Assembly (NCBI GenBank): GCA_964596735.1
Contig: CAZQVF010000004.1
Span: 229 to 64,228, forward strand
Reading direction: 5' to 3'
Source: an uncultured Gammaproteobacteria bacterium
Lineage (GTDB): Bacteria; Patescibacteriota; Patescibacteriia; UBA2591; UBA6264
DNA: 64,000 nucleotides
Part shown: positions 1 to 42,519 of the stretch, piece after piece
Layout of the letters: every line of letters starts with the position of its first letter
Position numbering within the stretch: position 1 is the stretch's first letter
Translations under genes and position numbers: made by a program
The notes under the pieces: model-generated
What the model was told of the DNA's origin: nothing
The model's input: only the letters and a program-made list of their open reading frames with translations
Databases searched by the model: none

Positions 1-1
1 T

Positions 2-1697: not shown

Positions 1698-1701
1698 ACA
1701 T

Positions 1702-7280: not shown

Positions 7281-7292
7281 TAACTAATTTCT

Positions 7293-11727: not shown

Positions 11728-12369
11728 ATGTTAAATGATTTAAAAAAAATATTAGTTTTAGCTCCTCACACTGATGATGGAGAATTTGGTTGCGGAGGAG
11801 CCATTGCCAAATTTATTGAAGAAAAGAAAAAAGTTTTTTATGTTGCTTTTTCTTCAGCGGAAAAATCAGTACCAAAAGGAATGTCTAAGAATGTTCTTAA
11901 AAAGGAACTAAAAAAAGCAGCTAAGGTTTTGGGTATTCCAGAAAAAAATCTGATTTTACTTAATTATCCAGTACGGGATTTTCCAGCTCACCGCCAAGAA
12001 ATCTTGGAAGATATGCTTAAGATAGGGGAAAAAATCAAACCAGATTTAGTGCTTCTCCCCTGTTCTCACGACACCCATCAAGATCACCAAGTAATTGCCC
12101 AAGAAGGGTTTAGGGCTTTTAAAACAACTTCTATGTTGGGATATGAAATTTCTTGGAATAATTTAAGCTTTAATACTGAAGCCTTTATTTTGCTTAAACC
12201 AAAACACTTACAAAAAAAACTTCGGGCTATAAGATGTTATAAATCTCAATCAAAAAGAGCCTATGCCTCAGAGGAGTTTATTAAAAGTCTGGCTACCACT
12301 CGCGGAAGACAAATCGGTGCAGATTCTTATGCCGAAGCATTTGAAATAACTAGATGGCTGATCAAATAA
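11728..12369 (+). CDS. PIG-L/LmbE-family N-acetylglucosaminyl deacetylase
   Basis: VLAPHTDDGEFGCGG (the HPDDE-like zinc-binding motif) and HDTHQDHQ. Confidence 0.7.
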   Translation: MLNDLKKILVLAPHTDDGEFGCGGAIAKFIEEKKKVFYVAFSSAEKSVPKGMSKNVLKKELKKAAKVLGIPEKNLILLNYPVRDFPAHRQEILEDMLKIGEKIKPDLVLLPCSHDTHQDHQVIAQEGFRAFKTTSMLGYEISWNNLSFNTEAFILLKPKHLQKKLRAIRCYKSQSKRAYASEEFIKSLATTRGRQIGADSYAEAFEITRWLIK

Positions 12370-13043
12370 AAATTGGAATTCACCAACCAAATTATTTGCC
12401 CTGGTTAGGTTATTTTTACAAAATCGCTCAGGTTGATATTTTTATTCTTTTAGACAATGTCCAATATGAAAAAAATAGCTATACCAACCGATGTCAAATC
12501 AAAACCCCTCAAGCCCCATTTTGGCTAACCTTACCGATTAAAAGAAAATTTCCTCAGATGATTAATAAGGCTGAAATAACTAATTATAAACAAGAAATTC
12601 AACGACATCTTAAAACCATTAGTCAAAATTATCAAAAAGCAAAATATTTTAATGACTTATACCCGGAATTAGAAAAAATAATGAAAAAAGATTATTCTTA
12701 TTTATCAGATTTGAATATTGCTTTAATTAAATTTTTGGTAAATAAGTTAAGAATCAAAACAAAAATAAAAACTGCTTCAGATTTTCAAGTTTCTGGGGCA
12801 AGTACTGAACGATTAATTAATCTTTGCAAAAATTTTAAAGGATCTATATATCTTTCTGGAAAAGGCGGGGCTAATTATCAAGACGAAGAAAAATTTAAAA
12901 AAGCAGGGATTAATTTAAAATATACTAATTTTCAACATCCCAATTACAACCAATTGTGGAAAGAATTTGTTCCTGGAATGTCAATTATTGATTTATTATT
13001 TAATTGCGGACCAGAAAGTTTAAAAATATTATTAAAAAAATAA
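12354..13043 (+). CDS. WbqC-like family protein
   Basis: IGIHQPNYLPWLGYFYKIAQVDIFILLDNVQY matches the WbqC-like (PF08889) N-terminus found in O-antigen loci. Confidence 0.6.
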   Translation: MADQIKIGIHQPNYLPWLGYFYKIAQVDIFILLDNVQYEKNSYTNRCQIKTPQAPFWLTLPIKRKFPQMINKAEITNYKQEIQRHLKTISQNYQKAKYFNDLYPELEKIMKKDYSYLSDLNIALIKFLVNKLRIKTKIKTASDFQVSGASTERLINLCKNFKGSIYLSGKGGANYQDEEKFKKAGINLKYTNFQHPNYNQLWKEFVPGMSIIDLLFNCGPESLKILLKK

Positions 13044-18804: not shown

Positions 18805-19581
18805 ATGGAGAAAAGAAAAGAAAGAGAAATCTCTCATTATGATAAATTGGCTGAAAAATGGCAAAATCAACGTCTAAATAAAAATTTGCAGGCGGATATT
18901 GAAGATTATGACGTAAATATTTTCTCAAGCTATCGATTTTGTAAAAAATGGATAAAACATAATGTTAAATCAGGAATGAAATTTCTTGACTATGGTTGCG
19001 GTCATGGAATGCATACTATTTTACCGGCAAAACTCGGGGCAGAGGTTTATGGAATTGATCTCTCAAAAAAATCTTTGAAAATTGCTGAACAAAGAATAAA
19101 GAAAAAAAAATGTGGCAAAATAAAATTTATTAAAATGGATTGTGAATCATTAGACTTCTCTGATAATTATTTTGATTTTATCTGGAATAGCGGCACATTT
19201 TCTTCTCTCGACATTAAAAGGGCCTTCCCAGAATTAGCTCGCGTTTTAAAACCAAGTGGAAAATTAATTGGCGTTGAAACATTTGGTCATAATCCCCTAA
19301 CAAATCTTAAGCGTTGGATTAATAAAAAACGCGGCGTAAGAACTTCATGGGCCACAGAACATATTATCAAGAATAAAGATTTAAAGTTTGCCAAAAAATA
19401 TTTCAATATAGAAAAAATATATTATTTTCATTTATTGTCGATGTTGACTTTTCCTTTTCGTAATATTTCTGGAGGAAAAACTTTGTTTAAGTTTTTAGAT
19501 CAGATTGACCATATATTATTGAAAATCCCCTGGCTGAAAAGATACGCCTTTAAAATTGTTTTTATTTTCTCAAAAAAATGA
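18805..19581 (+). CDS. Class I SAM-dependent methyltransferase
   Basis: FLDYGCGHGMHT (motif I), VYGIDLS, KPSGKLIG. Confidence 0.65.
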   Translation: MEKRKEREISHYDKLAEKWQNQRLNKNLQADIEDYDVNIFSSYRFCKKWIKHNVKSGMKFLDYGCGHGMHTILPAKLGAEVYGIDLSKKSLKIAEQRIKKKKCGKIKFIKMDCESLDFSDNYFDFIWNSGTFSSLDIKRAFPELARVLKPSGKLIGVETFGHNPLTNLKRWINKKRGVRTSWATEHIIKNKDLKFAKKYFNIEKIYYFHLLSMLTFPFRNISGGKTLFKFLDQIDHILLKIPWLKRYAFKIVFIFSKK

Positions 19582-20171
19582 TAAAAAAACTGTTTGATTT
19601 CTTTTGTTCCCTAATAGGGGTAATTATCCTTTCCCCTATTTTATTAATTATCAGCTTGGCTATAAAATTAGGTTCACCGGGGCCTGTATTCTATCGCGGA
19701 TTAAGAGTTGGAAAAGATAAAAAACCATTTAAAATATTCAAATTTCGGACTTTAGTTATCAATGCTGATAAAATTGGTGGTCCTTCAACCTCTGATGATG
19801 ACCCTCGATTAACTAAAATTGGCAAATTCTTGCGTAAATACAAACTTGACGAATTGCCTCAATTGTTTAATGTTATTAAAGGTGAAATAAGTTTAGTGGG
19901 ACCAAGACCAGAAGTTCCAGAATACGCTAAATTATATAAAAACGAAGAACAAATTATTTTTAAAGTGAAGCCAGGGATAACTGACCTGGCTTCTCTTTGG
20001 AATGCTGATGAGGGAGCTATTTTAAAAGGTAGCTCTGACCCAGAAAAAACATATTTAGAAAAAATCAGGCCAGAGAAAGTAAGATTACAAATAAAATATG
20101 TTAAAGAAAGATCTTTTGTTGGAGATTTAAAAATAATCTTTAAAACATTAAAAAAAATACTTAATAGGTAA
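19578..20171 (+). CDS. Small polyprenyl-phosphate sugar-phosphate transferase (Bac_transf / PglC-WbaP C-domain type)
   Basis: A single N-terminal TM, then SPGPVFYRGLRVGKDKKPFKIFKFRTL ... DELPQLFNVIKGEISLVGPRP, the hallmark of PF02397. Confidence 0.75.
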   Translation: MIKKLFDFFCSLIGVIILSPILLIISLAIKLGSPGPVFYRGLRVGKDKKPFKIFKFRTLVINADKIGGPSTSDDDPRLTKIGKFLRKYKLDELPQLFNVIKGEISLVGPRPEVPEYAKLYKNEEQIIFKVKPGITDLASLWNADEGAILKGSSDPEKTYLEKIRPEKVRLQIKYVKERSFVGDLKIIFKTLKKILNR

Positions 20172-20173: not shown

Positions 20174-21157
20174 ATGCCCAACTCTAAATATTCTAAAAAT
20201 TTTCTTTTAGGGCTTTATAAAAAAATGCTTCGTATTCGCCTGCTTGAAGAAAGCTTTGTTGAACCAATTATTAAGGGTGAAATTAAAACTCCTTGTCATC
20301 TTTATTCTGGAGAAGAAGCTATTGCCGTGGGCATTTGTGCTAATCTTAACAAAGCGGATGTATTATTTGGTAACCATCGCTCGCATGGTCATTATTTAGC
20401 CAAAGGCGGAGATATGAATAAATTGACCGCCGAAATTTTTGGTAAAATAACTGGTTGTTCAAAGGGCAGAGGAGGGTCTATGCATGTTACTGATCCTAAA
20501 AATGGTATACTTGGGTCAATTCCTATTGTTGCCGGAACTATTTCCTTAGCTGTCGGGGCAGCCATGGCTATAAAAAATAGAAATCAAAAAAGAGTGGCCA
20601 TTAGTTTCTTTGGCGACGGAGCCACAACCGAGGGCCTACTTCATGAATCTTTAAACTTTGCCGCTCTGCAAAAATTACCTATTATTTTTGTTTGTGAAAA
20701 TAATTTCTATGCCACTCATATGCCGATTAAAGAATGTTCTGCCAATACTAATCTTTATAAGTTGGGTCAACATTTTATGCCTTCTATTAGAATAGATGGT
20801 AATGATGTTTTAAAAGTACTTGAGGGAAGTAAAAAATTAATTAAAGACGCTAAAAACAACAAAGGCCCTGCTTTTATTGAATGTCTAACCTATAGACAAA
20901 GAGGTCATGTGGGCCCAGACGACAATATCCAGGGCGAGCACACTGATATTAGAGGAGAAAAAGAAGTTAGAGCTTGGTTTAAGAAAGATCCTATTAAAAG
21001 ATTTGAAAAATATCTTTTAAATAAGAAGGTTTTAAATAAAGCGGAAAAACAAAAAATTTATCAAAAAATAAATAAAGAAATTGCCCAAGCCTACCAATTT
21101 ATGAAGAAAAGTCCTTATCCAAAGAAAAGCGACCTGTTAAAACATATTTATGGCTGA
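20174..21157 (+). CDS. Thiamine-diphosphate-dependent dehydrogenase E1 component, alpha subunit
   Basis: ThDP-binding GDG...N motif (FFGDGATTEGLLHESLNFAALQKLPIIFVCENNFYA); YRQRGH. Confidence 0.75.
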   Translation: MPNSKYSKNFLLGLYKKMLRIRLLEESFVEPIIKGEIKTPCHLYSGEEAIAVGICANLNKADVLFGNHRSHGHYLAKGGDMNKLTAEIFGKITGCSKGRGGSMHVTDPKNGILGSIPIVAGTISLAVGAAMAIKNRNQKRVAISFFGDGATTEGLLHESLNFAALQKLPIIFVCENNFYATHMPIKECSANTNLYKLGQHFMPSIRIDGNDVLKVLEGSKKLIKDAKNNKGPAFIECLTYRQRGHVGPDDNIQGEHTDIRGEKEVRAWFKKDPIKRFEKYLLNKKVLNKAEKQKIYQKINKEIAQAYQFMKKSPYPKKSDLLKHIYG

Positions 21158-22151
21158 CAAAAAAGCAAAAAAAAGACTTCTCAGTTATAGCCTAGCTATT
21201 AATGAAGCGACTCACCAAATGATGAGTCAGAATAAATCTGTTTTTATTATTGGTCAAGGAGTTAAAAGCCCTTGGTATGTTGGTAATACTTGTCAAAATC
21301 TTTTAGAAAAATTTGGCCCTAAACGGGTTATTGATACGCCCATTGCTGAAAATGCTATCACTGGTGTTGGTGTCGGGGCTGGCATTGCCGGAGCTCGTGC
21401 CATTGTCGTTCATCCGCGTATTGATTTTATGCTCTACGGATTAGATCCGATTATTAATGAAGCGGCTAATTGGCGTTATATCTTTGGTGGTCAATCAACC
21501 GCTCCAGTAATTATTCGAGGAATAATCAATCGAGGAGGAGAGCAAGGAGCCCAACACTCCCAAACCTTACAAGGAATTTTTGCTCAGGTTCCAGGGCTAA
21601 AAGTAGTAATGCCAACTACAGCCTATGATGCCAAAGGTTTGTTAATTTCAGCTATTAAAGGCAATGACCCTGTGGTCTACATTGAAGATCGCTGGCTTTA
21701 TGAACAAAAATGCCACGTGCCTAAAAAAATATATACTGTCCCAATTGGTAAAGCAAAAATTAGAAAAAAGAGCAAAGGTATCACTATAATTGGCATTTCT
21801 TATGCAATGCTGAATACGCTTGAGGCTGCCAAAGAATTAAAAAAACAGAAAATTGATGCTGAAGTGATTGATGTTCGTACTATAAAGCCATTAGATATAA
21901 ATTTAATTATTAATTCAATTAAAAAAACAGGAAAAGTAGTTATTGTTGAAGCAGACTGGAAAACTGGCGGAGTTTCAGCCGAAATTGCTGCACAAATTTC
22001 AGATAAAGCATTCTCATATCTTAAAAAACCAATAAAAAGAATTTGTTTACCCGATTCCCCTGCCCCTACAAGTAAAACATTGGAAAAAGCATATTACGAT
22101 CATATTTCAACTAATAATATTATTAAAACAGTTAAAAAATTAATAAAATAA
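21150..22151 (+). CDS. ThDP-dependent dehydrogenase E1 component, beta subunit (transketolase-like)
   Basis: Transketolase pyrimidine-binding and C-terminal domains (VIDTPIAENAITGVGVGAGIAGARAIV ... DVRTIKPLD). Confidence 0.75.
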   Translation: MADKKAKKRLLSYSLAINEATHQMMSQNKSVFIIGQGVKSPWYVGNTCQNLLEKFGPKRVIDTPIAENAITGVGVGAGIAGARAIVVHPRIDFMLYGLDPIINEAANWRYIFGGQSTAPVIIRGIINRGGEQGAQHSQTLQGIFAQVPGLKVVMPTTAYDAKGLLISAIKGNDPVVYIEDRWLYEQKCHVPKKIYTVPIGKAKIRKKSKGITIIGISYAMLNTLEAAKELKKQKIDAEVIDVRTIKPLDINLIINSIKKTGKVVIVEADWKTGGVSAEIAAQISDKAFSYLKKPIKRICLPDSPAPTSKTLEKAYYDHISTNNIIKTVKKLIK

Positions 22152-22153: not shown

Positions 22154-23269
22154 ATGCACAAAGTACCTTTTGTAAACTATCCCCTACATTATCAATCAAT
22201 GAAAAAAGAAATTGATGCGGCTATAAAAAGAGTTTTATCTAAAGGTGATTTAATACTCCGTGATGATGTAAAAAAATTTGAAAACAGTATCGCCTCGTTT
22301 CTAGGAGTCAAATATAGTGTAGGTGTAAATAGCTGTACAGATGCTTTAATTTTTTCATTACGAGCCGCTGGTATTAAAAGAGGTGATGAAGTTATAACCG
22401 TTTCTCATACTTTTCTTGCAACCATAGCCGCCATTGTCCACTGCGGGGCCAAACCCATCCTAATTGAAGTTGGAGATGATTACAATATGGACGCAGACGA
22501 GATAGAAGCGGCTATTACAAAGAAGACAAAAGCCATTCTTCTGGTTCATTTTAATGGTCGGGCTTGTAATATGAAAAAAATAATGAACCTTGCCAAAAAA
22601 CACAACCTAAAAGTAATTGAAGATGCGGCTCAATCTCTCGGGGCTACTTTTAATAAAAAAATGGCTGGTTCTTTTGGTCTCTCAAGTTGTTTTAGTTTTT
22701 ATCCGGCAAAAATACTCGGAACATTTGGAGACGGTGGAATGGTGTGTACAAACAACAAATCTTTTGCTCAAAAAATTATTCTTTTAAGAGATCATGGAAG
22801 AGAAACTAAAGACAAGATAGCTTGTTATGGGTTTACTAGTCGTCTAGACAATTTGCAGGCCGCTATTCTTAATGTGAAATTTAAATATTTTTCTGCTTGG
22901 ATTAAAAAACGTAGAAAATTAGCCGCTGTTTATAATCAAGGATTATCAGGAATAAAAGAAATTAAACTTCCTCCGTCTCCTCAAACAAAAGGGCCATTCT
23001 TTGATGTATACCAAAACTATGTAATCCGGGCCAAGAAAAGAAATAAGCTTGCTTTGTGCTTAAAAAATAAAGGGATTGAAACAATTATTTCCAGCCCTAT
23101 TCCAAATCATAAACAAAGGGCATTAAAAGACCTACATCATTTTCATCTTCCAAAAACAGAACAAATGGCAAAAGAGGTTATTTCTCTTCCCTTATATCCT
23201 GAATTAACCAATATGCAAATAAAATACGTTATTCAAGCTGTCCGCGAGTTTTATAAAAATAAGAACTGA
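22154..23269 (+). CDS. DegT/DnrJ/EryC1/StrS-family PLP-dependent sugar aminotransferase
   Basis: Full-length DegT architecture (CTDALIFSL ... VITVSHTFLAT ... FSFYPAKILG ... LPLYPEL). Confidence 0.8.
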   Translation: MHKVPFVNYPLHYQSMKKEIDAAIKRVLSKGDLILRDDVKKFENSIASFLGVKYSVGVNSCTDALIFSLRAAGIKRGDEVITVSHTFLATIAAIVHCGAKPILIEVGDDYNMDADEIEAAITKKTKAILLVHFNGRACNMKKIMNLAKKHNLKVIEDAAQSLGATFNKKMAGSFGLSSCFSFYPAKILGTFGDGGMVCTNNKSFAQKIILLRDHGRETKDKIACYGFTSRLDNLQAAILNVKFKYFSAWIKKRRKLAAVYNQGLSGIKEIKLPPSPQTKGPFFDVYQNYVIRAKKRNKLALCLKNKGIETIISSPIPNHKQRALKDLHHFHLPKTEQMAKEVISLPLYPELTNMQIKYVIQAVREFYKNKN

Positions 23270-23284: not shown

Positions 23285-24442
23285 ATGAGAAAAACATTTT
23301 TATCATTTTCCCCTCCTTTAATTGGCCAGGAAGAAATTAAACAAGTTGTTAAAACGCTTAAGTCTGGCTGGTTAACTACTGGACCAAAAGCTAAAAAATT
23401 TGAAAGAAATTTTGCCAAGTTTGTTGATGCTAAATATGCCGTTGCCACCAACTCCTGCACTGCCGCTCTTCATCTTTGTTTAAAAATCATTGGTGTTAAA
23501 AGCGGTGATGAAGTTATTGTTCCCACAATGACTTTTGCGGCCACTGCTGAGGTTGTTGAACATCTTAATGCCAGACCCGTTTTAGTTGATATTAGACCCG
23601 ATACTTTAATTATCGACCCGAAACAGATTGAAAAAGCCATTACTAAAAAAACCAAAGCTATTATTCCGGTTCATCATGGTGGTCAAGCCGGTGAAATTGA
23701 TAAAATCCTTAAAATTGCCAAAAAATATAAGCTAAAAGTTGTTTGGGACGCGGCCCATGCTTTGCCCACAAAGTATAAAGGAAAAATAATTGGAAGCTTT
23801 CCTGATTTAACTTGCTTTAGTTTTTATGTCAATAAAACTCTAGCAGCTGGCCAAGGAGGAATAATAACAACTAATAATAAAAAATGGGCTGAACAAGCGC
23901 GTCTATTAAGTTTTCACGGTATTAATACAAATCCTTGGAAGCGTAGTACTGTGGGTTCTTGGTATTATGAAATTATCACTCCAGGATTTGAATGTAATTT
24001 AACTGATATTGCTGCTTCTTTAGGCTTAGTCCAGTTAAAAAGAGTTAATTCTTTTTTACAAAAAAGAAGAAGAATTGCCCAAGCATATAACCAGGCTTTT
24101 AAAAATTTAAAAGAGATTGACATTCCTGTTATTGGAAAAAACACTAAACCTTGCTGGCATCTCTATGTTATTCAATTAAACCTTAATAAATTAAAAATAA
24201 ATCGTAATCAATTTATTCAAGAATTAAAAAAACGAAACATTGGCTTTAGTGTACACTTTATCCCCTTGCATCTACACCCGTATTATAGGGAAAAATATGG
24301 ATATAAGGCTAATGATTTTCCTCATGCTTATGCTGCCTATAAACGAATAATTTCTCTACCTATTTATCCTAAAATGACTCAAAAGGATATTCGAGATGTT
24401 GTCTGGGCCGTCAAAGACATTGTTAAAAAATTTAAAAAATGA
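23285..24442 (+). CDS. DegT/DnrJ/EryC1/StrS-family PLP-dependent sugar aminotransferase (second copy)
   Basis: ATNSCTAALHLCL ... VIVPTMTFAATA ... FSFYVNKTLAAGQGG ... LPIYPKM. Confidence 0.8.
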   Translation: MRKTFLSFSPPLIGQEEIKQVVKTLKSGWLTTGPKAKKFERNFAKFVDAKYAVATNSCTAALHLCLKIIGVKSGDEVIVPTMTFAATAEVVEHLNARPVLVDIRPDTLIIDPKQIEKAITKKTKAIIPVHHGGQAGEIDKILKIAKKYKLKVVWDAAHALPTKYKGKIIGSFPDLTCFSFYVNKTLAAGQGGIITTNNKKWAEQARLLSFHGINTNPWKRSTVGSWYYEIITPGFECNLTDIAASLGLVQLKRVNSFLQKRRRIAQAYNQAFKNLKEIDIPVIGKNTKPCWHLYVIQLNLNKLKINRNQFIQELKKRNIGFSVHFIPLHLHPYYREKYGYKANDFPHAYAAYKRIISLPIYPKMTQKDIRDVVWAVKDIVKKFKK

Positions 24443-26322
24443 GTATAAAAAATAAAATTTTCACTAATATAGCTTTGAAAAGAACCATCTTCTTTTTATT
24501 AAGCGATGTTGTTTTAATTGGACTAGCTTGCTGGCTGGGTTTTTTGCTTCGTTTTGATGCAAGTATTCCTCAAAAATATTTTTTAATGATTAAAGCATTT
24601 ATTGTTTTTTGCATCCCTGTAATCATTTTTTTCTTTTTCTTAGAAAAACTTTATTCTATTTCTTGGACATTTATTAGTGTTACTGAGCTCTTTAAACTAA
24701 TCAGAGCCGTCATCATCAGTTTTTTAATCATTGGTGGTATCATATATCTTTTACGTAGCCAGCAAACAGTTTTTTCTGGGTTTCCTCGTTCAATCCTTTT
24801 TATTACCTTTAATCTTGTTCTTGGATTTACTGGGGCCTTACGTTTTGCTAAAAGAATTTATCTCCACGGATTTCAAAGAATTAGTCGAAATGGAAAAAAC
24901 ACCAAAAAAGGTAAGCCTATTCTAATTATTGGGGCCGGCGGAGCAGGAGAACAATTAGCTCGACACATTGTCTCTTCCTCTAATACTCCTTATTCTTTAA
25001 TCGGCTTTATTGATGACAGTCCCGTGAAACAAGGAATTTTAATTCATGGTATTAAAACTTTGGGAAAAATTAAGGATTTACCAAAAATTGTTAAAGAACA
25101 TCAGGTTAAAGAAATTATTATCGCCATGCCTTCTGTCTCTCGAAAAATTATTAAACAGACTGTTAATTTGTCTCGCAAGGCTGGTGTGCAAAAAATAAAA
25201 ATATTGCCAAGTACTGAACAAATTCTAGCAGAAAGAGTTAGTTTAAGTAATTTACGTGATATCTCTATTGAAGATTTACTCGGCCGAGAATCAGTAAAGA
25301 TAGACATGCGTGCTATTCAAAGCTATATTACTGGAAAAACTATCTTAATAACGGGAGCGGCTGGTTCAATTGGTTCTGAATTGTGCGAACAAGTCTTAAA
25401 ATTTAAGCCAAAAAGATTAATTGCCTTAGACCAAGGTGAAACTGGCATTTTTCATTTAGAAAGAAATTTAAATAAAGCGTTTCCACAAATTCAAAAGTCA
25501 TTTATTCTCGCTGATGTTTACGACCAAAATAAAACAAATCAAGTGTTTCATAGTCTTAAACCTGAAGTTGTTTTTCATGCTGCCGCCTACAAACATGTGC
25601 CTGTAATGGAAGCCAATCCTGAAGAGGCAATTAAAAATAATGTTTTTGGAACATTGACACTTGGTAAGGCTGCTTTAGAGAACAATGTTGAAAAATTTGT
25701 GATGATCTCTACTGACAAGGCAATTAATCCCACCTCAATAATGGGAGCAAGCAAACGAATTTGTGAAATGATCTGTGTTTGGCTTAATAAACAAAATAAA
25801 ACAAAATTCTGTGCGGTCAGGTTTGGCAATGTTTTAGGTAGCCAGGGAAGCGTTGTTCCTATTTTTGAAAAACAAATAAAAAAGGGTGGTCCTGTTGAGG
25901 TAACCCACCCTGAAATGAAAAGATATTTTATGGTCACAGCTGAATCTTGTCTCTTGGTCATGCAAGCCGGGGCCATTGGCCAGGGTGGTGAAGTTTTTGT
26001 CCTTGATATGGGTCAACCAATTAAAATTGTTGATTTAGCCAGGGAAATGATCCGCTTAGCAGGCTATCAGCCCGATGTTGACATTCCTATTGTTTTTACT
26101 GGAATCAGACATGGAGAAAAATTATTTGAGGAAATCATGACAGATAAAGAAACCCCGACTAAACATGAAAAAATATTTATTGCTCAACTCTCACAAATCA
26201 ATGAAGAAAAGCTGATTCAGTGTTTAGAAAGCTTTAAGCAGGCCCTTGAAAAAATTGATAAAGCTGCTATAATAAATACATTAAAAGACCTTGTTCCTAT
26301 GTATGAAACAGGTAAAAAATAA
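24439..26322 (+). CDS. Membrane-anchored nucleotide-sugar 4,6-dehydratase (PglF/CapD/WbpM family)
   Basis: Four N-terminal TM helices, a CoA-binding-like linker, and a Polysacc_synt_2 SDR domain (ILITGAAGSIGSEL ... YKHVP ... ISTDKA). Confidence 0.8.
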   Translation: MSIKNKIFTNIALKRTIFFLLSDVVLIGLACWLGFLLRFDASIPQKYFLMIKAFIVFCIPVIIFFFFLEKLYSISWTFISVTELFKLIRAVIISFLIIGGIIYLLRSQQTVFSGFPRSILFITFNLVLGFTGALRFAKRIYLHGFQRISRNGKNTKKGKPILIIGAGGAGEQLARHIVSSSNTPYSLIGFIDDSPVKQGILIHGIKTLGKIKDLPKIVKEHQVKEIIIAMPSVSRKIIKQTVNLSRKAGVQKIKILPSTEQILAERVSLSNLRDISIEDLLGRESVKIDMRAIQSYITGKTILITGAAGSIGSELCEQVLKFKPKRLIALDQGETGIFHLERNLNKAFPQIQKSFILADVYDQNKTNQVFHSLKPEVVFHAAAYKHVPVMEANPEEAIKNNVFGTLTLGKAALENNVEKFVMISTDKAINPTSIMGASKRICEMICVWLNKQNKTKFCAVRFGNVLGSQGSVVPIFEKQIKKGGPVEVTHPEMKRYFMVTAESCLLVMQAGAIGQGGEVFVLDMGQPIKIVDLAREMIRLAGYQPDVDIPIVFTGIRHGEKLFEEIMTDKETPTKHEKIFIAQLSQINEEKLIQCLESFKQALEKIDKAAIINTLKDLVPMYETGKK

Positions 26323-26327: not shown

Positions 26328-27272
26328 ATGGACTATCATCAATCACAATCTCAACAACATAGTCAACAAGTTAAATCTTCTTATGAAGAAGAAATTAACT
26401 TAAGAGACTATTTACAAACGATTTGGAAAAGGAAAATGAGCATTATTGCTGTTTTCTTAATAATTGTTATTCTGGGTGGAATCTTGACTTATTTTGTTTT
26501 ACCAAAAATTTATGAGAGTACATCAATTTTAAGAATAGGAAAAATTAGTGGCGAGCACATCGAAACACCCGAACAAACAGAAGTCATTATTTCTACGCTT
26601 ACTATTAATAGAGAAATAATGAGGAGATTAGATTTATTAGAGTTACCCAAAAAATCTAAAATACCAGAAGAGATAAGAATAACAAATAAAATTGATGACT
26701 TTCTAAAGGTTAAAACAACTGCCTCTACTCCTGAAAGAACGCTGGCTTTAAATGAAATTACTAATGAGATTATAATAGAGAGGCATACTGACTTAGCAAC
26801 CCAGGCTCAACTTGCTTTAAAAGAAAGTATTGAACAGATCCAAAAACAAACTAAAGACACTGAAATAGCCATGGCTGAAACATCAAAAAGAATAGAAACA
26901 GTTAACCAAGAGGCTGATAGTATTTTAAAAAAAGTAGAAGAATTAGACAAAGCTTCTACTGAAGGACAGGGTCGGGTTGTTCAGGGGTATTTAAATGCTT
27001 GGCAAGATACAAAGGCTCGAATAGGAAGTGAACAGACAAAACATGACCAGCTTAAAAACAAATTGGAAGCATTAAAAAATTCTCTGCGTGGAAAACAGAT
27101 AGAACAGGCCTATCAAGAACAGCCTACTAGCATAGAAGTTGGGCCTGCCTTGGCTAGTGGTCCGGTTAAACCAAATAAACAATTAAATTGGGTAATCACG
27201 ATTATTATCGCCTTCTTTGTTAGTATTATCTACGGTTTCATGGCCGAATATTTTAGCAAAGAAAAAGTTTAG
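26328..27272 (+). CDS. Wzz-like polysaccharide chain-length determinant protein
   Basis: The N-terminal Wzz motif (DYLQTIWKRKMSIIAVFLIIVILGGILTYFVLPKIYESTSIL), a long coiled-coil region, and a C-terminal TM. Confidence 0.6.
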   Translation: MDYHQSQSQQHSQQVKSSYEEEINLRDYLQTIWKRKMSIIAVFLIIVILGGILTYFVLPKIYESTSILRIGKISGEHIETPEQTEVIISTLTINREIMRRLDLLELPKKSKIPEEIRITNKIDDFLKVKTTASTPERTLALNEITNEIIIERHTDLATQAQLALKESIEQIQKQTKDTEIAMAETSKRIETVNQEADSILKKVEELDKASTEGQGRVVQGYLNAWQDTKARIGSEQTKHDQLKNKLEALKNSLRGKQIEQAYQEQPTSIEVGPALASGPVKPNKQLNWVITIIIAFFVSIIYGFMAEYFSKEKV

Positions 27273-27342: not shown

Positions 27343-28353
27343 TTACTTCTCCTCTTCTTTAATAGCTTTTAAAATATCTTTTTTTAATTGCTGGGCTAAT
27401 TTCTTATCCTCTCTTAAGCTTTGTTTGGCTTTTTCCCAACCGACTCCAAGCTTATTCTCTCCATAACTTAAAGTATTTCCTGATTTCTTAACCAAGCCAT
27501 GTTTGGCTCCTAAATTTAACAAATCTCCGGCCCAAGAAATACCTTCATCATACATAATCTCAAACTCACAAACTTTAAATGGCGGAGCTACCTTATTCTT
27601 AACAACCTTGACCTTAACCTTATTGCCAATAACATCATCACCTTTTTTCATTTGAGCTAGACGTCTGAGTTCTATTCTAACTGAGGAATAAAATTTTAAA
27701 GCCAAGCCGCCTGTTGTCGTCTCTGGATTACCAAAATAGATTCCAATTTTCATTCGAATTTGATTAATAAAAATTACCGATGTATTAGTCTTACTAACAA
27801 TACTAGTTAGTTTTCTAAGGGCTTGGGACATAAGACGAGCTTGCAATCCCATTTGAGCATCTCCCATATCTCCTTCGATTTCTTTTTTTGGCGTTAAAGC
27901 CGCCACTGAGTCAATAACAATAATATCAACCCCATTAGAACGAACCAAGGTTTCAACAATTTCTAAAGCTTCTTCAGCACAAGATGGTTGAGAAATTAAG
28001 AGATCATTAACCTTAACCCCTATTTTTTTAGAATATTCTGGGTCTAAAGCATGTTCAGCATCAACAAAAGCGGCAATTCCACCTTTTTTCTGGGCTTCAG
28101 CAATCATATGAAGAGCTAAAGTAGACTTACCAGTCATTTCATTTCCAAAAATCTCAATCACCCGACCCCTGGGAATTCCCCCCACTCCTAAGGCTAAATC
28201 TAATGATAAACACCCTGTAGAAATCGCCTCTACCTGCATTTTTTTAGCCTCTCCGAGCTTCATAATAGTTCCTTCACCAAAACGTGACTTAATCTGCTCA
28301 ACAGCCGCTTCAGTCGCTTTTTGGCGCGGAGATATATCTTTTTGTTTATTCAT
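27343..28353 (-). CDS. recA: Recombinase RecA
   Basis: [23 protein letters not shown] (Walker A) and strong full-length RecA similarity. Confidence 0.95.
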
Positions 28354-28400
28354 ATAAATATTTATTAATGTTTATATTATATATCATTAAAGGCAATTTT

Positions 28401-28429
28401 ATTATATAAAGAAAAAACTACAAAGTCAA
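28401..28429 (-). promoter_or_regulatory. Candidate sigma70-type promoter for recA
   Basis: On the minus strand: TTGACT - 17 nt - TATAAT, about 45 nt upstream of the recA ATG. Confidence 0.45.
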
Positions 28430-28430
28430 C

Positions 28431-29096
28431 TTATTTAATTATTTCTTTTTCCAATACTATTTGGCGATAAATAATTTTTTCTTTAGAATATTTCTTTTTA
28501 GCTGATATTTCAATTTGATTTAAACCAATTAAAAGATCTATTTTTTGTTCAAAAAATCCTTCCTCTGTTTGTTCCACTGGCTGGTTGTTAATAAAAATAG
28601 TCGCCCGAGGATTAGTTTTACCTTTAATTGTTAAAGATGAATTTGTTGTCACCATATCTTCAGCTGGATAAAAAATTTTAATCTCCGGACTAAATAAAAC
28701 ATTTTTAATGCCAAAACCTAAATAGAATAAAATTAAACAAAAAACTATCAAAATTAAAATAATCTTGAATTTAAACTGACTTAATTGAAACATTTCCTTT
28801 ATCTTGCTTCTCGGTTTTTTAAGTTCTCTTTCTCCATGATTATACTTTTCATCCCATTGACTAAGTATTTTTTCAAAATCTAATTTTAAAAACTCAGCAT
28901 AACGTTTTAAAAACCCACGAGCATAAGTTGGGCTTGGTAATTTATAAAAATCATCTGCCTCTAAAGATTCTAAATATTTAACCTCAATACTAATCTCCTT
29001 GGCTACCTCTTTTAAATCCAATTCTTGAGAAAGACGAGCCTTTTTTAAAAGCCCGCCTAGGGTATTTATTTTAATTTCTCGTTTAGTAAAACTCAT
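28431..29096 (-). CDS. RodZ-like protein (N-terminal HTH, one TM, C-terminal extracytoplasmic domain)
   Basis: XRE-type HTH (LGGLLKKARLSQELDLKEVAKEISIEVKYLESLE), a TM (ILILIVFCLILFYLGF), and a C-terminal beta-rich domain. Confidence 0.55.
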   Translation of the reverse strand: MSFTKREIKINTLGGLLKKARLSQELDLKEVAKEISIEVKYLESLEADDFYKLPSPTYARGFLKRYAEFLKLDFEKILSQWDEKYNHGERELKKPRSKIKEMFQLSQFKFKIILILIVFCLILFYLGFGIKNVLFSPEIKIFYPAEDMVTTNSSLTIKGKTNPRATIFINNQPVEQTEEGFFEQKIDLLIGLNQIEISAKKKYSKEKIIYRQIVLEKEIIK

Positions 29097-29105
29097 TTTT
29101 GTTCT

Positions 29106-31313
29106 CTATTCAACTTCTTCTTCATTTACTTCTTCTTCTAAACTTCGATAAACTTCTCTTGGTTTGGCTCCATCTGCTGGACCAATTATTCTTTCATTTT
29201 CTAATAAATCTAAAAGTCTAGCCGCTCTAGCATAGCCAATTCTTAAACGACGCTGTAAAAATGAAGCAGAAGCTTTACCCGCCTGAATAACTACATCCCT
29301 TGCCTCGGGTAACATTTCGTCTTCTTTTAAGTCTCCGTGTTCTAATCCTATTTCTATTTGATGACTTTTCGTAATATCTTCTTGAAAATTAGGCTCAGCA
29401 ATATTTCTTAAATATTCAACAATCCCTTTTACCTCATCATCAGAAACAAAAGCGCCTTGAATTCTTTTAGGTTTGGATAATTCTGAGGAGATAAAAAGCA
29501 TGTCTCCTCGTCCTAATAATTTTTCTGCTCCGGAAAGATCTAAAATCGTCCTGGAATCCATTAAAGAAGCAACGGAAAAGGCTATCCTTGACGTAATATT
29601 AGCCTTGATTAAACCCGTAATAATGTCCACAGAAGGCCTCTGAGTGGCCATAATGAGGTGAATACCCGTGGCTCGCGCCATTTGAGCTAAACGGACAATA
29701 CAGGCCTCTACCTCTTGAGCCGCCGTCGCCATTAAATCGGCTAATTCATCAATCATAATAACTATAAAGGGTAATTTATTTTCTGGATTAGCCTGGTTAT
29801 AGGCATTGATGTCTCTCTTTTTAGCCTCGGCCATAACATCAAAACGACGATCCATTTCGCCTACGGCCCACTTTAAAGCATTGATTGTTTTTTGCACATT
29901 AGTAATAACTGGAGTTAATAAATGAGGCAGGTCATTATAAAGAGTTAATTCAACTCTTTTTGGGTCAACCAAAATAAATCTTAAATCATCAGGCGAATTT
30001 TGATAAATCAGACTAATAATAACACTATTAAGGAAAATAGTTTTACCACTACCTGTGGAACCGGCGACTAAACAATGAGGCATTTTACCCAAATCAGCCA
30101 GCCAAATATTACCGGTGACGTCTCGCCCCAAAGCAATAGTCAAGTTTGATTTTCTGTTTTTAAAAGCATTGTCGGATAAAATTCCCCTTAATCTAATTAC
30201 GGCTACTTGTTGATTTGGGACTTCGATTCCGACCAAAGACTGCCCTGGAATTGGGGCTTCAATGCGAATAGGATGAGCCGCCAAGGCCAAGGACAAATCA
30301 TTATGCAAACCCGTAATATGGGATAATTTTACTCCATCAGCTGGCTTAAGCGTATACTGAGTTACGGTCGGGCCTATTTTAATCTCTCCCATTTCTACTG
30401 AAATATTAAAATTCTCTAAGGTTTTTTTAATAATTAACTTATTCTCTTTAATATCTCCGGCATTAGGTTTTGTTGAATCAGCTCCTAATAAGCTTAAAGG
30501 TAAATCAATTTTTTGATGCGATTTAATATAAGAAACAGACATCTCATCTTTTTTGCCCTTAGTCTTAGTAAATATATTTTTAATTTTTGGTATAATTTCC
30601 TCTTCTTCTTCATATTCTTCTTCATATTCTTCTTCGGTTGATTCAGCTAATAATTTATCTGTTGGCTCTGGCTTTAAAACTAATTTTTGTTTTCTTTTAA
30701 AAATAGATTTTAATCCACCTAAGGTCTTTTTAAATAAACCTTGCTGAATTATTTCTTCCCCCTCTTCTTCGTCCTCCTCTTCTTGTTCTCTTTTTAAGCT
30801 AACCAAGCCCGCCAAAACAATAATTAAACCAATTGTAAAGAGACCAATAAAAATCACCCAACTTGCCCAAAAGCCAAAGGTATTAACAACAAGATAACTA
30901 AGGCCATAGCCCAAATAACCTCCTCCATAATGTTCAATCAAAGCAATTTTGTCATCAACAAAATAAATATGAAAAATAGCTGATAAAACAAGAACTAAGA
31001 AAATTAATCCTCCGCAACGAGCCCCCAACGAAGGATATCTTCTGTCTAAAGCCTGGTTCATTTCTTTAATATCTTCGTATTTAAGTATTAACCAGCCAGA
31101 TAAAACCAGAACAACAGGAACCAACCAACTGGCCCAGCCAAAAAATGTTTCTAAACCTAAAACAAGAAATTCGCCAGCAACGCCAGCTAAATTAACTAAT
31201 CCTAGAAATAAAATAATCGCCAGCGTGAATAAAATTATGGCGACAATTAAGCGCTGAGTCTTTCTATTAAAAGAGAACCTAGACTCTTTTTTCTTTTTTC
31301 TTTTTTTGGCCAT
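29106..31313 (-). CDS. ftsK: DNA translocase FtsK/SpoIIIE
   Basis: N-terminal TM helices, an acidic linker, a motor domain (HCLVAGSTGSGKT, FILVDPKRVEL, MIDELADLM), and a C-terminal gamma (winged-helix) domain. Confidence 0.9.
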   Translation of the reverse strand: MAKKRKKKKESRFSFNRKTQRLIVAIILFTLAIILFLGLVNLAGVAGEFLVLGLETFFGWASWLVPVVLVLSGWLILKYEDIKEMNQALDRRYPSLGARCGGLIFLVLVLSAIFHIYFVDDKIALIEHYGGGYLGYGLSYLVVNTFGFWASWVIFIGLFTIGLIIVLAGLVSLKREQEEEDEEEGEEIIQQGLFKKTLGGLKSIFKRKQKLVLKPEPTDKLLAESTEEEYEEEYEEEEEIIPKIKNIFTKTKGKKDEMSVSYIKSHQKIDLPLSLLGADSTKPNAGDIKENKLIIKKTLENFNISVEMGEIKIGPTVTQYTLKPADGVKLSHITGLHNDLSLALAAHPIRIEAPIPGQSLVGIEVPNQQVAVIRLRGILSDNAFKNRKSNLTIALGRDVTGNIWLADLGKMPHCLVAGSTGSGKTIFLNSVIISLIYQNSPDDLRFILVDPKRVELTLYNDLPHLLTPVITNVQKTINALKWAVGEMDRRFDVMAEAKKRDINAYNQANPENKLPFIVIMIDELADLMATAAQEVEACIVRLAQMARATGIHLIMATQRPSVDIITGLIKANITSRIAFSVASLMDSRTILDLSGAEKLLGRGDMLFISSELSKPKRIQGAFVSDDEVKGIVEYLRNIAEPNFQEDITKSHQIEIGLEHGDLKEDEMLPEARDVVIQAGKASASFLQRRLRIGYARAARLLDLLENERIIGPADGAKPREVYRSLEEEVNEEEVE

Positions 31314-31354
31314 GACTTAAAATTTTTAATTTCAAGGTTCTGCGTAGCAGGTTC
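31314..31354 (-). repeat. Short intergenic element of the TAA-GAACC ... GAACCTTGAAAT family (rpoC-ftsK spacer)
   Basis: Minus sense: TAA GAACC tgctacgca GAACCTTGAAATTAAAAATTTTAAGTC ATG. It shares its framing motif with the elements at 38574, 42441 and 49036. Confidence 0.4.
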
Positions 31355-34300
31355 TTATCTTTTAGGTTTTGTTTTTTTCAATCCTGTCCCTACTGGAATT
31401 AATCTACCAACAATTACGTTTTCTTTCAAGCCCCTTAAATGATCTGGACGACCACTAATGGCGGCCTTGACCAAAACTCTTGAAGTTTCTTGAAAAGAAG
31501 CAGCTGAAAGCCAAGAGTCAGTAGAAAGGGAAACCCGAGTAATACCAGTTAATCTTTCTTCTGCTTCCGCCTGCTTTTTACCTAAAGCCTTTGCCTTTTT
31601 ATTAATTTCCCATAAATAAGACTTGGGAACTATTTCTCCTGGTAAGAGATTTGTTTCTCCCCCGTCCTTAATTAAACAACGAGAAAACATTTGACGGATA
31701 ACTATTTCCACATGTTTATCATTTAACTTCTGCGCCTGAGATGAATAAATATATTGAATTTCCTTAAGGACATATTTTTCTGTTGCTTCTCTCCCCTGTA
31801 ATTCATAGAGTTCACGTAAATCCAAACTGCCGTCTGTTAATTGTTCTCCAACCTTAACCTTGTCTCCGTCTTTAACCCAAACATTATAGCCAGTAACATT
31901 GTATTCTTCTTTGTCGTCGCGTTCATAAAAAACTTTAATCGTTCCCGTACTAAGTTTAATCTTACCTTTATGCTTAGCGGTAATCTTTCTCTTTTTAAAT
32001 GTAGCTAAAACCTCTCCTCGTTTTACTTCCTGGTCTTGTTTAACTTTAATCTTCCAGTCTTCATCTTCATCAATCAAATAAGTTTCTTGTTTTTTTCCTT
32101 TATATTTCAAGATAATTCTTTTTTTATCATCTTCTTGAACTAAATTAACCACTCCATCGTGATTAACCATCACTGCCTTTTTCTTAACCGGCCGCACTTC
32201 AAAAAGTTCTTCAACTCGTGGCAAACCCTGAGTAATATCCACTCCCGCTACCCCACCAGTATGAAAAGTTCTTAATGTTAACTGGGTGCCTGGTTCACCA
32301 ATACTCTGAGCAGCGATAACACCAACCGGAGTACCTAATTCTACGGGTTTATTATAGCCTAAATCATAGCCATAACACTTAACACAGGTGCCATGCAGTG
32401 ATTTACAACTTAAAACAGATCGAATAAAAACTTTTTCAGGATCTGCTTCGTTAATCTCTTTTGCCTTTTCCCTGCTAATCATTTCATTGGCTTTGACAAT
32501 TACTTTTTTAGTCTTTGGACGTTTAATAGCCTGAACAGCAGTACGACCAAATAATCTGCTCTGCCAATCTTCATCCATTTCCAGATTTTCCTGGCGAGTT
32601 AAGCAAATACCCTTTTTATCACCGCAATTTTTTTCAGTAATAATTATGTCCTGACAAACATCAACCATGCGGCGAGTCAAATATCCAGCACTAGCCGTAC
32701 GCAAAGCCGTATCCGCTACACCTTTTCTCGAACCATGGGTAGAGATAAAGTATTCCAAAACATTGAAACCTTCTTTAAAAGAAGATTTAATGGGTAATTC
32801 AATTAAACGACCAGTTGGGGAAGAAACAATTCCTCTCATTCCAAACATCTGAGCTAACTGAGTCCAAGAACCACGCGCTCCTGATTCAACCATGGTAAAA
32901 ATTGCCGAGACAGCTAAGGGATTCTTTTTTACAATTTCTGTAATTTTACTCTTGGCTGTCATCCAGGTCTCAATACTCTTAAGATAGCGCTCATCTTCTG
33001 CCAATAAACCCATATCATACTGAGATTGTATTTTATCAATATTTTTCTCCGCTTCCCCAATAATCTTTTCTTTTTCTGGTAAATGGGGTAAATCATCCAT
33101 GCCCCAAGAAAGACCTGAGGCAGTTAAATATGAAAGAGTCGTTTGCTTAATTTTATCTAACAATTCAACTGTTTTTTCTCGCCCATGTATTTCTATAGAT
33201 TCGATAATAAAATTTTTGAGTCTCTTCTTATCAACAACATTATCCATTTGATAAAGTCCTGGGGGTAAGATATTATTAAAAGCTAATCGACCAGCACTAG
33301 TTTCCTTTATTCTTTTACCAATTCTAACATTAATTCTTTCTTGCAAATCTATTTTGCCTGACTGATAAGCCAAAAGGGCTTCTTCGGCATTAATAAAAGA
33401 TGAAAGATGTTTTTTCTTATCCTTAAGCATGGTCATATAATAAGCACCCCAAACCATGTCTTGGGTTGGGGTAACTACTGGCTCACCAGTGGCTGGTTTT
33501 AAAAGATTATGAGTAGATAAAATAATATCTTTTGCTTCTTTTTGAGCTCTTTCCGTAATAGGAACATGCACGGCCATTTGATCACCATCAAAATCCGCAT
33601 TAAAAGCGGCACAAACTAAAGGATGAATCTGAATTGCCTTACCCTCAATAAGGACAGGTTGAAAAGCTTGAATACCTAAGCGATGTAAAGTTGGGGCTCG
33701 ATTAAGCAAAACATAAGATTTTTTAGTAATTTCTTCTAAAATTGCCCAAACGTCTTCTGCCCCGTCCTCGATTAAACGATTAGCACTGCGAACATTATGA
33801 ACCAAACCTCTTTTAATTAATTCACTAGCAATAAAAGGCTTGAAAAGCTCTAGAGCCATGACCTTGGGCAAACCACATTGGTTTAATTTTAATTTAGGCC
33901 CGACAACAATTACGGATCGACCAGAATAGTCCACTCTTTTCCCAAGTAGATTTTGACGAAATCTTCCTTGTTTACCTTTTAAAATATCTGCTAAAGATTT
34001 TAAGGGTCTGCGTTGACCAGTAGAAGCAATGGTTGTTTTGCCTGACCTCATATTGTTGTCAATTAAAGCATCGACTGCTTCTTGAAGCATTCTTTTTTCA
34101 TTACGTAAAATTACCTCTGGAGCATGTAAATCATAAAGACGCTTTAATCGATTGTTACGATTAATCACTCTTCGATAAAGATCATTTAAGTCTGATGAGG
34201 CAAAACGGCCCCCATCAAGAGGAACCAGGGGCCTTAATTCTGGTGGAACAACAGGAATTGTTTTTAAAATCATATGTTCTGGCTGAATCTTGTTGACCAA

Positions 34301-35149: not shown

Positions 35150-35160
35150 AAAATTTAATA

Positions 35161-41523: not shown

Positions 41524-41642
41524 TCAATATCTTGGGGAGTTTTATAATGTTTCTCAATATTTCTAACTATTTTACTTAATTTAATAATCTCAGGATTTTT
41601 TAATTTTTGTTTAGCTTGTTTTGCTTTAGGAACAGCGATATT
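41463..41642 (-). other. In-frame 59-codon continuation of the PPDK_N ATP-grasp gene beyond its TAA
   Basis: Same frame as 41643..42422. It translates to NIAVPKAKQAKQKLKNPEIIKLSKIVRNIEKHYKTPQDIEWAFAKGKIYITQSRPITTL, the conserved end of the PEP synthase / PPDK nucleotide-binding domain (IEKHYG.P.DIEWA...IVQARP). Confidence 0.7.
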
Positions 41643-42422: not shown

Positions 42423-42440
42423 TAAAATATTATTTACATA

Positions 42441-42519
42441 TTAAATTTCAAGGTTCCCGCCTAAATTTCGAAGAAACTTTGGCGGGGTTCTCGACGAACG
42501 AAGTGAGGAGGGATTCTTA
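42441..42519 (-). repeat. GC-clamped hairpin repeat, copy B (identical 50-nt core at 42444..42493)
   Basis: Identical to 38577..38626. Its tail ends in the TAA of paralog 3. Confidence 0.7.

Follow-up and report, generated by a model that had tools for sequence, protein, structure and literature searches.

An E1 alpha/beta pair without E2 and E3 partners in a recurrent surface-glycan cassette: a candidate carboligase for branched sugars

Two kinds of thiamine diphosphate (ThDP) enzyme are described that add branches to nucleotide-bound sugars, and a review assigns the YerE-like enzymes to lipopolysaccharide (LPS) and those of the E1 type to secondary metabolites (PMC12247030). YerE, a flavo-ThDP enzyme made of one chain, belongs to the decarboxylase (acetolactate-synthase-like) superfamily and acts on CDP-3,6-dideoxy-4-keto-glucose (PMC12247030, PMC4753412). 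Within the E1-type group, AviB1/AviB2 and Pau11/Pau12 have been proposed as the enzymes that add the pyruvate-derived C-4 acetyl branch in eurekanate and paulomycose; once Pau11/12 have acted, the aldo-keto reductase Pau7 reduces this branch (PMC4753412). Feeding experiments and gene knockouts support pyruvate as the donor for AlmDI/II of aldgamycin, KbDH-alpha/beta of kibdelomycin were assayed in vitro with ketones, and across the group the branch ketone is reduced, methylated, oxidised or transaminated, the latter being the case in kibdelomycin (PMC12247030). Here we analyzed a pair of E1 alpha and E1 beta genes located within the surface-glycan operon of a 64 kb stretch of patescibacterial DNA (contig CAZQVF010000004.1; the whole stretch is called the window), which very probably encodes an E2-independent sugar-pathway enzyme of some kind. 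To our knowledge, C2-branching of sugars by E1-type enzymes has so far been described only in antibiotic-producing actinomycetes. Our literature search retrieved no E1 pair described in O-antigen, capsule or Pgl-type clusters, although a survey of ~120 E1-type branching clusters could list one. In the gene table of a Crocosphaera exopolysaccharide cluster, E1 alpha and E1 beta genes are listed, with no remark on them, beside genes for a sugar transferase, an aldo/keto reductase and an O-methyltransferase (PMC3247675).

The two genes encode proteins with the domains, the ThDP motif and the catalytic residues of the alpha2beta2-type 2-oxoacid dehydrogenase E1 (Table 1). Residues G147, G149, E153, N176 and N177 of E1 alpha occupy invariant alignment columns. 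The closest match in the PDB is human PDHA1 for E1 alpha (4.9e-54) and the E1p beta subunit of Geobacillus stearothermophilus for E1 beta (7e-66). Both subunits score under the curated NCBIfam thresholds: E1 alpha reaches 314.3 bits with the pyruvate dehydrogenase (PDH) model PDH_E1_alph_y, for which the cut-off is 393.85, and E1 beta reaches 314.2 bits with PRK09212 (cut-off 321) and 312.5 bits with PRK11892 (cut-off 454). Base-level reading of the junctions revealed that the two genes overlap by 8 nucleotides (nt), the TGA stop codon of E1 alpha lying at 21155-21157 and the ATG of E1 beta at 21150, and that only 2 nt separate the stop codon of the PglC gene from the ATG of E1 alpha, and the stop codon of E1 beta from the ATG of the first DegT gene (DegT1). 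These data support several points of an earlier annotation made from the DNA letters (the original prediction). The E1 alpha with its GDG…N motif and the transketolase-like E1 beta are borne out by the list of open reading frames (ORFs), the Pfam matches and the translation. Furthermore, the proposed translational coupling agrees with the 8-nt overlap, and the order with a PglC-type gene directly before the pair and DegT, DegT and PglF genes after it agrees with both Pfam and the junction reads.

The conservation of this arrangement was then evaluated in other genomes. A protein search with E1 alpha yielded more than 120 cluster representatives, 59-94% identical to it, with annotations that include Elusimicrobiota, Patescibacteria, Thermodesulfovibrio and Brocadiaceae. 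We inspected the gene surroundings of seven representatives on long contigs, and 80 loci that a scan of species-representative genomes had yielded were mapped by tblastn; the searches covered the window and ~10 kb flanks of the related loci. A block of six genes (Methyltransf_11, PglC, E1 alpha, E1 beta, DegT and PglF), hereafter the cassette, is shared by 25 distinct loci that represent more than 10 phyla, some of these loci being clipped by contig ends. The host groups are Patescibacteria, Nitrospirota, Omnitrophota, Elusimicrobiota, Brocadiaceae, Bacteroidales, Verrucomicrobiota, deltaproteobacterial groups, Acidobacteriota and Dehalococcoidales. The carriers include a Thermodesulfovibrio genome (CP144374.1), a metagenome chromosome (OW818650.1) and the Patescibacteria genome GCA_028713475.1. 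At every locus with an E1 alpha at least 47% identical to that of the window, PglC, DegT or PglF genes adjoin the E1 pair. The association of the E1 pair with sugar genes is far beyond chance. The cassette proteins share 50-72% identity between phyla, and the PglC-type protein of the window is 68-72% identical to the Thermodesulfovibrio, Elusimicrobiota and Brocadiaceae copies (71% for the one on the Thermodesulfovibrio chromosome), values that exceed those of E1 alpha. This cross-phylum identity, and particularly that of the PglC-type protein with Thermodesulfovibrio, points to lateral movement of the cassette as one unit. A search among plasmid proteins gave relatives of at most 42% identity and no annotated example of the cassette.

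The genes of the cassette are not equally attached to the E1 pair. The DegT1 gene is the most tightly attached partner of E1 beta, being its direct neighbour in nearly every locus, and the aminotransferases next to the E1 genes in all related loci are of this type (43-57% identical to DegT1 versus 29-35% to the second enzyme, DegT2). DegT2 is optional: it is missing from three minimal cassettes (L001, L003 and L088), in which PglF is the sole dehydratase and the DegT1-type enzyme the sole aminotransferase, and which encode no ArnB/PglE-type enzyme. Of the 25 distinct cassette loci, 16 have a PglF-type dehydratase gene, and among the remaining ones are several truncated contigs. The Methyltransf_11 gene immediately precedes the PglC/E1 block in L001, L003, L014, L018, L019, L028, L087, L088, L089 and L090. 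The original prediction took the two DegT enzymes and the dehydratase together as the source of a 4-keto intermediate; this role can be kept for the PglF-type dehydratase by homology, whereas the DegT enzymes are not equivalent and only DegT1 travels with the E1 pair.

We then analyzed the distribution of the E2 and E3 components with which E1 enzymes form 2-oxoacid dehydrogenase complexes. The tblastn references were Pfam-verified E2 and E3 proteins from acetoin/PDH-type operons of Bacillaceae and Clostridium (loci L064 and L040). No E2 or E3 gene was detected across the 64 kb window, in agreement with the missing partner noted in the original prediction, or in any cassette locus including its flanks. 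The E2/E3 genes which, according to that prediction, would mark a conventional complex are thus lacking beside the close relatives as well. Such genes adjoin only those relatives of E1 alpha that are at most 43% identical to the window protein. Concomitantly, the E2-linked sequences fall in a neighbour-joining tree into clades apart from an E2-less superclade, which includes the cassette clade.

The E2-less superclade is not limited to the cassette. Other E2-less pairs, outside the PglC clade, occur at L020-L037, L043, L046, L050, L055, L058, L060, L067 and L079, and the one at L058 sits in a complete Pelagibacter genome. The 73 immediate neighbours of these pairs include 15 radical SAM proteins and 10 epimerases/dehydratases, together with SIS, PfkB and cytidylyltransferase, NTP_transferase and GT2 proteins. 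Among them, PfkB with a cytidylyltransferase corresponds to heptose-type activation, and radical SAM/SPASM proteins and NDP-sugar dehydratases/epimerases are also found. Because these orphan pairs adjoin diverse sugar-nucleotide genes, the E1-type enzymes may act on several kinds of nucleotide sugar beyond the PglF product.

To compare the active sites, 20-21 cassette sequences were aligned with 33 E2-linked sequences. In the enzyme of G. stearothermophilus (Gst), E59-beta contributes to cofactor activation and F85-beta to pyrimidine stacking, while H128-beta and H271-alpha are catalytic; the residues P125, T124, F85 and F82 surround H128-beta with a hydrophobic nest (PMC2663715). Equivalents of E59-beta, F85-beta, H128-beta and H271-alpha are retained in the window pair as E67, F93 and H136 of E1 beta and H245 of E1 alpha. 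The nest itself is altered: F82 is replaced by Arg in 100% of the cassette sequences (R90 in the window) and T124 by Gln in 95% (Q132 in the window), whereas 82% of the E2-linked sequences have Phe at the F82 position. Furthermore, H123 of Gst beta is replaced by Glu in 95% of the cassette sequences, and G34-G35 by Trp-Tyr in the cassette clade. The outer active-site loop of Geobacillus E1 alpha gates the entry of the lipoyl domain (PMC2663715). In the closest relatives of the window protein, this loop reads GHVGPDDNIQGxHTDIR and contains a 4-residue insertion found in no E2-linked sequence. The cassette pair hence lacks both the hydrophobic nest and the canonical outer loop that characterize the lipoyl side of complex E1. 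Another change, which we give as an observation only, concerns the position of Gst beta E285, acidic and conserved in E2-linked enzymes and occupied by Lys in 71% of the cassette sequences. We take the region of this residue to belong to the docking surface for E2, although the literature did not confirm the residue. Judged from the alignments, the pair retains what it needs to bind ThDP and to decarboxylate, while the lipoyl-side pocket for the second substrate is remodelled. Since the decarboxylation residues are kept and the second-substrate pocket is changed, this fits with hydroxyethyl-ThDP still being formed and passed to a polar acceptor other than lipoamide.

These results bear directly on the simplest explanation of the pair, that is a conventional pyruvate, acetoin or branched-chain 2-oxoacid dehydrogenase E1 placed in the glycan operon by chance, with E2 and E3 encoded elsewhere. 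Its fold, its ThDP motif and its catalytic histidines are indeed those of a heterotetrameric E1. However, the placement is identical in all 25 cassette loci, E2/E3 genes accompany only the distant relatives in their separate clades, both subunits fall under the curated PDH cut-offs, the lipoyl-side pocket and the outer loop are changed, and the genes are tightly packed, with the short gaps and the overlap described above. The recurrence of the cassette, the E2/E3 distribution, the tree, the sugar-gene neighbours and the sub-threshold scores together make a complex placed by chance very unlikely.

Which reaction the pair catalyzes can be proposed from gene context, conservation and the active-site changes. 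We estimate at roughly 0.55 the probability that the two subunits form an E2-independent, heteromeric ThDP carboligase which transfers the C2 unit of pyruvate onto a UDP-4-keto-6-deoxy-N-acetylhexosamine (HexNAc). In this scheme, we infer pyruvate as the donor, the acceptor, the branch position, and what DegT1 does to the branch and the methyltransferase to the product. The pathway would begin with the PglF-type dehydratase, assigned by homology, which would convert UDP-N-acetylglucosamine (UDP-GlcNAc) into UDP-2-acetamido-2,6-dideoxy-4-hexulose; this conversion is the established chemistry of the PglF family. The E1 pair would then decarboxylate pyruvate, and the resulting hydroxyethyl-ThDP carbanion would attack the C4 ketone to produce a 4-C-acetyl tertiary alcohol. 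C4 would be available as a ketone acceptor because the minimal cassettes have no ArnB/PglE-type enzyme. In a third step, the QdtB/DesV-like DegT1 would transaminate the new methyl ketone into a 1-aminoethyl branch, and a methylation of the product by the Methyltransf_11 protein may follow as a speculative fourth. The carboligase and the aminotransferase each need a ketone and PglF provides a single ring ketone, so that the second ketone would be the one made by the carboligase, provided that one sugar is the substrate of both. Finally, the PglC-type enzyme would transfer the sugar phosphate to polyprenyl phosphate, giving the first residue of the surface glycan; that the product is the initiating, polyprenyl-linked sugar is presumed because the PglC gene adjoins the pair. 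According to the gene content, the glycan would be completed by glycosyltransferases (GTs) and the Wzx/Wzy/Wzz proteins. In the window, DegT2 would divert some of the 4-keto pool to an ordinary 4-amino sugar used for another residue.

Such a scheme keeps most of the original prediction and corrects it in two respects. Its general claim, a sugar-pathway ThDP enzyme and not a dehydrogenase complex, holds for a clade that is E2/E3-less and locked to PglC, DegT and PglF, the chemistry being deduced. The C2 branch on a 4-keto sugar, which it compared to yersiniose, has precedents, but YerE belongs to the wrong superfamily and the E1 alpha/beta enzymes are those that fit. The expected product, a C-branched or acyloin-modified amino sugar, should probably be amended to a branch that is transaminated as in kibdelomycin and not left as an acyloin. 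Membership of the pair in the YerE family was itself considered and rejected: the superfamily is different, the enzyme has two subunits with no TPP_enzyme_N or TPP_enzyme_M match, and the weak TPP_enzyme_C match (1.3e-6) lies inside the E1_dh domain.

The assignment of DegT1 to the branch depends on the type of this aminotransferase. The best PDB matches of DegT1 are 7b0d, 7n63, QdtB, 5u1z (WlaRG-type), DesV (2oga) and WbpE, and the protein keeps the pyridoxal phosphate lysine (FYPAKILG). Since its closest solved relatives QdtB, DesV and WbpE are ring C3 aminotransferases, the C-branching could be real, with a 4-C-acetyl or later hydroxyethyl group, while DegT1, as a ring aminotransferase, uses another keto-sugar or PglF product from a parallel pool. 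The aldo/keto reductase genes found beside the E1 pair in L090 and in the Crocosphaera cluster, in the manner of Pau11/12 with Pau7, also favour this possibility. It appears nevertheless rather unlikely: DegT1 directly adjoins E1 beta in nearly every locus, and the minimal cassettes, with their single dehydratase, contain no 3,4-ketoisomerase or 3-dehydrogenase that would provide a ring 3-ketone. In L090, the aldo/keto reductase gene (6016-6978) is located between the PglC and E1 alpha genes, and a gene for a 23S-rRNA-intervening-sequence protein (8039-8398) splits E1 alpha from E1 beta. As regards the tailoring of a branch in the cassettes in general, the candidates are the adjacent DegT1, the usual Methyltransf_11 protein and, in L090, the reductase, with substrates that are deduced only.

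A second group of aminotransferases was found in part of the cassettes. A class-I (Asp/Met-type) enzyme of 383-430 amino acids is encoded beside DegT1 or E1 alpha in L005, L007, L008, L009, L011, L013 and L019, which amounts to 7 of 21 cassette loci, and additionally in L089; it may serve to supply or to remove a 2-oxoacid. As these enzymes are made for free amino and oxo acids, the E1 pair could perform an auxiliary 2-oxoacid chemistry, making an aldehyde or amine substituent or clearing the 2-oxoacid by-product of transamination, and leave the nucleotide sugar untouched. In this case, the combination of a ThDP enzyme with an aminotransferase and a methyltransferase would recall the logic of 2-aminoethylphosphonate (AEP) synthesis. 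This explanation is doubtful, however, because there is no conserved phosphoenolpyruvate (PEP) mutase and no conserved ligase or transferase for a substituent of this kind, neither the window nor the minimal cassettes encode the class-I aminotransferase, the release of an aldehyde is not normal for E1-type enzymes, and the strongest linkage of the pair is to PglC, DegT1 and PglF. An AEP pathway proper was examined as a separate candidate and rejected, given that the Pfam search of the window detected no PEP mutase and that the ThDP enzyme is of the E1 type and not of the phosphonopyruvate decarboxylase type.

The gene order of the Pgl systems suggests yet another function. By analogy with the order PglF-PglE-PglD-PglC, the E1 pair occupies the position of PglD, and no PglD-type (Hexapep) acetyltransferase was detected by Pfam in the window operon or among the 25 commonest families of cassette neighbours. 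The pair could accordingly replace PglD and acylate the 4-amino group of the PglF/DegT product from a 2-oxoacid by a ThDP reaction independent of CoA and lipoate, leading to N,N'-diacetylbacillosamine (diNAcBac) or an N-acyl variant. We consider this improbable: the formation of acetyl-ThDP from pyruvate requires a two-electron acceptor and the cassette has no conserved redox partner, the acylation of an amine has no known precedent in the E1 family, and DegT1 stands outside the PglE/PseC/ArnB 4-aminotransferase type, to which only the optional DegT2 belongs. More likely than a replacement of PglD is that the cassette makes a 4-C-(1-aminoethyl), possibly N-methylated, HexNAc with which surface glycans start in many uncultured phyla.

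Several points weigh against the carboligase proposal. The position of the pair in the PglD slot is the first. Moreover, L090 encodes both an aldo/keto reductase and DegT1, which is more than one branch ketone needs, and the class-I aminotransferase has no place in the model. We know of no 4-C-(1-aminoethyl) or 4-C-acetyl HexNAc in bacterial glycans.

Table 1. Features of the glycan operon around the E1 pair. Positions refer to the window.
Feature	Position	Strand	Length, matches and remarks
SAM-dependent methyltransferase, Methyltransf_11	18805..19581	+	258 aa; Pfam 1.4e-23
Small PglC-type polyprenyl-phosphate phosphoglycosyl transferase	19578..20171	+	197 aa; Pfam Bac_transf 3.3e-60
E1 alpha-type ThDP subunit	20174..21157	+	327 aa; Pfam E1_dh 2.1e-69
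ThDP/Mg binding motif GDGATTEG…CENN	20612..20704	+	E1 alpha residues 147-177, from translation
Clade-specific motif GHVGPDDNIQGEHTDIR	20903..20953	+	E1 alpha residues 244-260; catalytic His245, then 4-residue insertion (outer active-site loop)
E1 beta-type subunit	21150..22151	+	333 aa; Pfam Transket_pyr 5.8e-28 + Transketolase_C 5.9e-36
DegT1, QdtB/DesV/WbpE-like sugar aminotransferase	22154..23269	+	371 aa; Pfam DegT 5e-104
DegT2, ArnB/PseC-like (Spr1654-like) 4-aminotransferase type	23285..24442	+	385 aa; Pfam 1.7e-126
PglF-type membrane-anchored UDP-GlcNAc 4,6-dehydratase	24439..26322	+	627 aa; Pfam Polysacc_synt_2 5.3e-116 + CoA_binding_3
Wzz-type chain-length determinant, final + strand gene of the glycan operon	26328..27272	+	Pfam Wzz 1e-9

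The other proteins of the operon were compared with solved structures and curated families. The closest PDB match of the PglF-type protein is Campylobacter jejuni PglF/WlaL (5BJU; 1.9e-93). DegT2 scores 370 bits with the NCBIfam model PseC and 368 bits with ArnB, and its best PDB matches are ArnB and the pneumococcal 6ewj. The PDB matches of the Methyltransf_11 protein are generic, the best named ones being phosphoethanolamine N-methyltransferases at ~1e-12, and N-, O- or C-methylation is not assignable from them. A GT2 gene is present upstream, beside the Methyltransf_11 and PglC-type genes (Pfam).

The glycan locus on the + strand extends from the window start to 27272 and also encodes flippases, GT4 enzymes, a Wzy-like protein, a PIG-L/WbqC pair, a formyltransferase, a radical SAM/SPASM protein and extra methyltransferases. 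Its first part (1-9092, +) reaches the window edge, where a third DegT gene is cut and present as its 3' part; this part carries the radical SAM/SPASM and formyltransferase genes, two further Methyltransf_11 genes, a second Wzx-like flippase gene and two ORFs of 623 and 599 amino acids with no Pfam match. The gene content of this part, with the formyltransferase and the methyltransferases, suggests that the surface glycan contains at least one N-formylated amino sugar and is very heavily modified. At 11728-13043 (+), a gene for a PIG-L-type de-N-acetylase overlaps that of the WbqC-family protein, and a PIG-L gene accompanies the cassette in L028 and L090 too.

Beyond the glycan operon, the opposite strand (27343-38361, -) encodes RecA, an HTH_25 protein with a Glucodextran_B-like domain and FtsK, followed by RpoC and RpoB. 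RecA and FtsK are 78% and 64% identical, respectively, to those of the Patescibacteria metagenome-assembled genome (MAG) GCA_028713475.1, where the order Wzz-RecA-HTH_25-FtsK is the same; locus L005, from a Patescibacteria MAG, shows this order. The GC content is ~32%. The window probably derives from a genome akin to this MAG and of Patescibacteria type. Further on (39964-47127, -), four diverged paralogues of 491-521 amino acids, 26-37% identical, stand in a row, their sole Pfam match being a C-terminal PEP-utilizers mobile domain. A 259-aa ORF with a PPDK_N (nucleotide-binding) match interrupts this array at 41643-42422, and a tRNA-Arg(CCG) gene lies by it at 47167-47239. The array looks like a split and multiplied family of PEP-utilising enzymes, as far as the domain content tells.

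The annotation of such genes as 'pyruvate dehydrogenase E1' is misleading, especially in the reduced Patescibacteria, since it wrongly implies a central-metabolic complex. The data indicate instead that the six genes form a dedicated, horizontally mobile cassette, which serves to make an unusual initiating sugar; it occurs in more than 10 phyla, and almost all of its hosts are uncultured. If the predicted C-branched (amino)sugar is true, it would represent a new class of monosaccharide in bacterial surface glycans, the E1-type sugar carboligases would reach beyond actinomycete antibiotics to the cell envelope and to UDP-HexNAc substrates, and a large and diverse set of enzymes would be at hand for tertiary-alcohol and amino-branched sugars.

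How does the window pair compare with the known systems? With the E1 of pyruvate, acetoin and branched-chain complexes, it shares the fold, the GDG…NN motif and the retained residues E67, F93 and H136 of beta and H245 of alpha; it differs from them by the lack of nearby E2/E3 genes, the Arg and Gln of the nest, the insertion in the alpha loop and the Lys at the Gst beta E285 position. The Pgl-type modules for UDP-diNAcBac and UDP-AAT (PglF-PglE-PglD-PglC; WcfR/WcfS) have in common with the cassette a block of PglF-type, small PglC-type and DegT-family genes. Unlike them, the cassette includes no PglD-type acetyltransferase and adds the E1 pair and a methyltransferase, and its constant aminotransferase is QdtB/DesV-like and not PglE/PseC-like. 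The window does not have the full Pgl set for diNAcBac either, as the PglF and PglC types and the PglE/ArnB-type DegT2 are present while the PglD type was not found in the operon. The YerE-like enzymes of yersiniose, erwiniose and caryophyllose, which belong to LPS, would share the role, namely the ThDP-dependent addition of an acyl anion to an NDP-4-keto-sugar in a surface polysaccharide pathway; YerE is one chain, however, whereas the window pair combines E1_dh and transketolase-type domains.

The likeness is strongest with the E1-type branching enzymes. Compared by gene anatomy, AviB1/B2, Pau11/12, AlmDI/II and KbDH-alpha/beta are, like the window pair, E1 alpha/beta pairs without E2/E3 in a nucleotide-sugar cluster. 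In both cases, the pair adjoins a 4,6-dehydratase that supplies the keto-sugar and candidates for the tailoring of the branch (an aminotransferase, a methyltransferase and sometimes an aldo/keto reductase), and the reductase of L090 is reminiscent of Pau7 and its reduction of the acetyl branch in paulomycose. The settings are different: the described enzymes belong to antibiotic clusters and use dTDP-deoxyhexose acceptors, while the window pair is part of a Wzx/Wzy/Wzz glycan operon and its acceptor is presumably a UDP-HexNAc-derived 4-ketone from the PglF-type enzyme. Their hosts are antibiotic-producing actinomycetes, whereas those of the cassette are Patescibacteria and many other, mostly uncultured phyla. 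By analogy, the closest precedent for the pair is thus best seen in the E1-type enzymes AviB1/B2, Pau11/12 and KbDH, and not in YerE.

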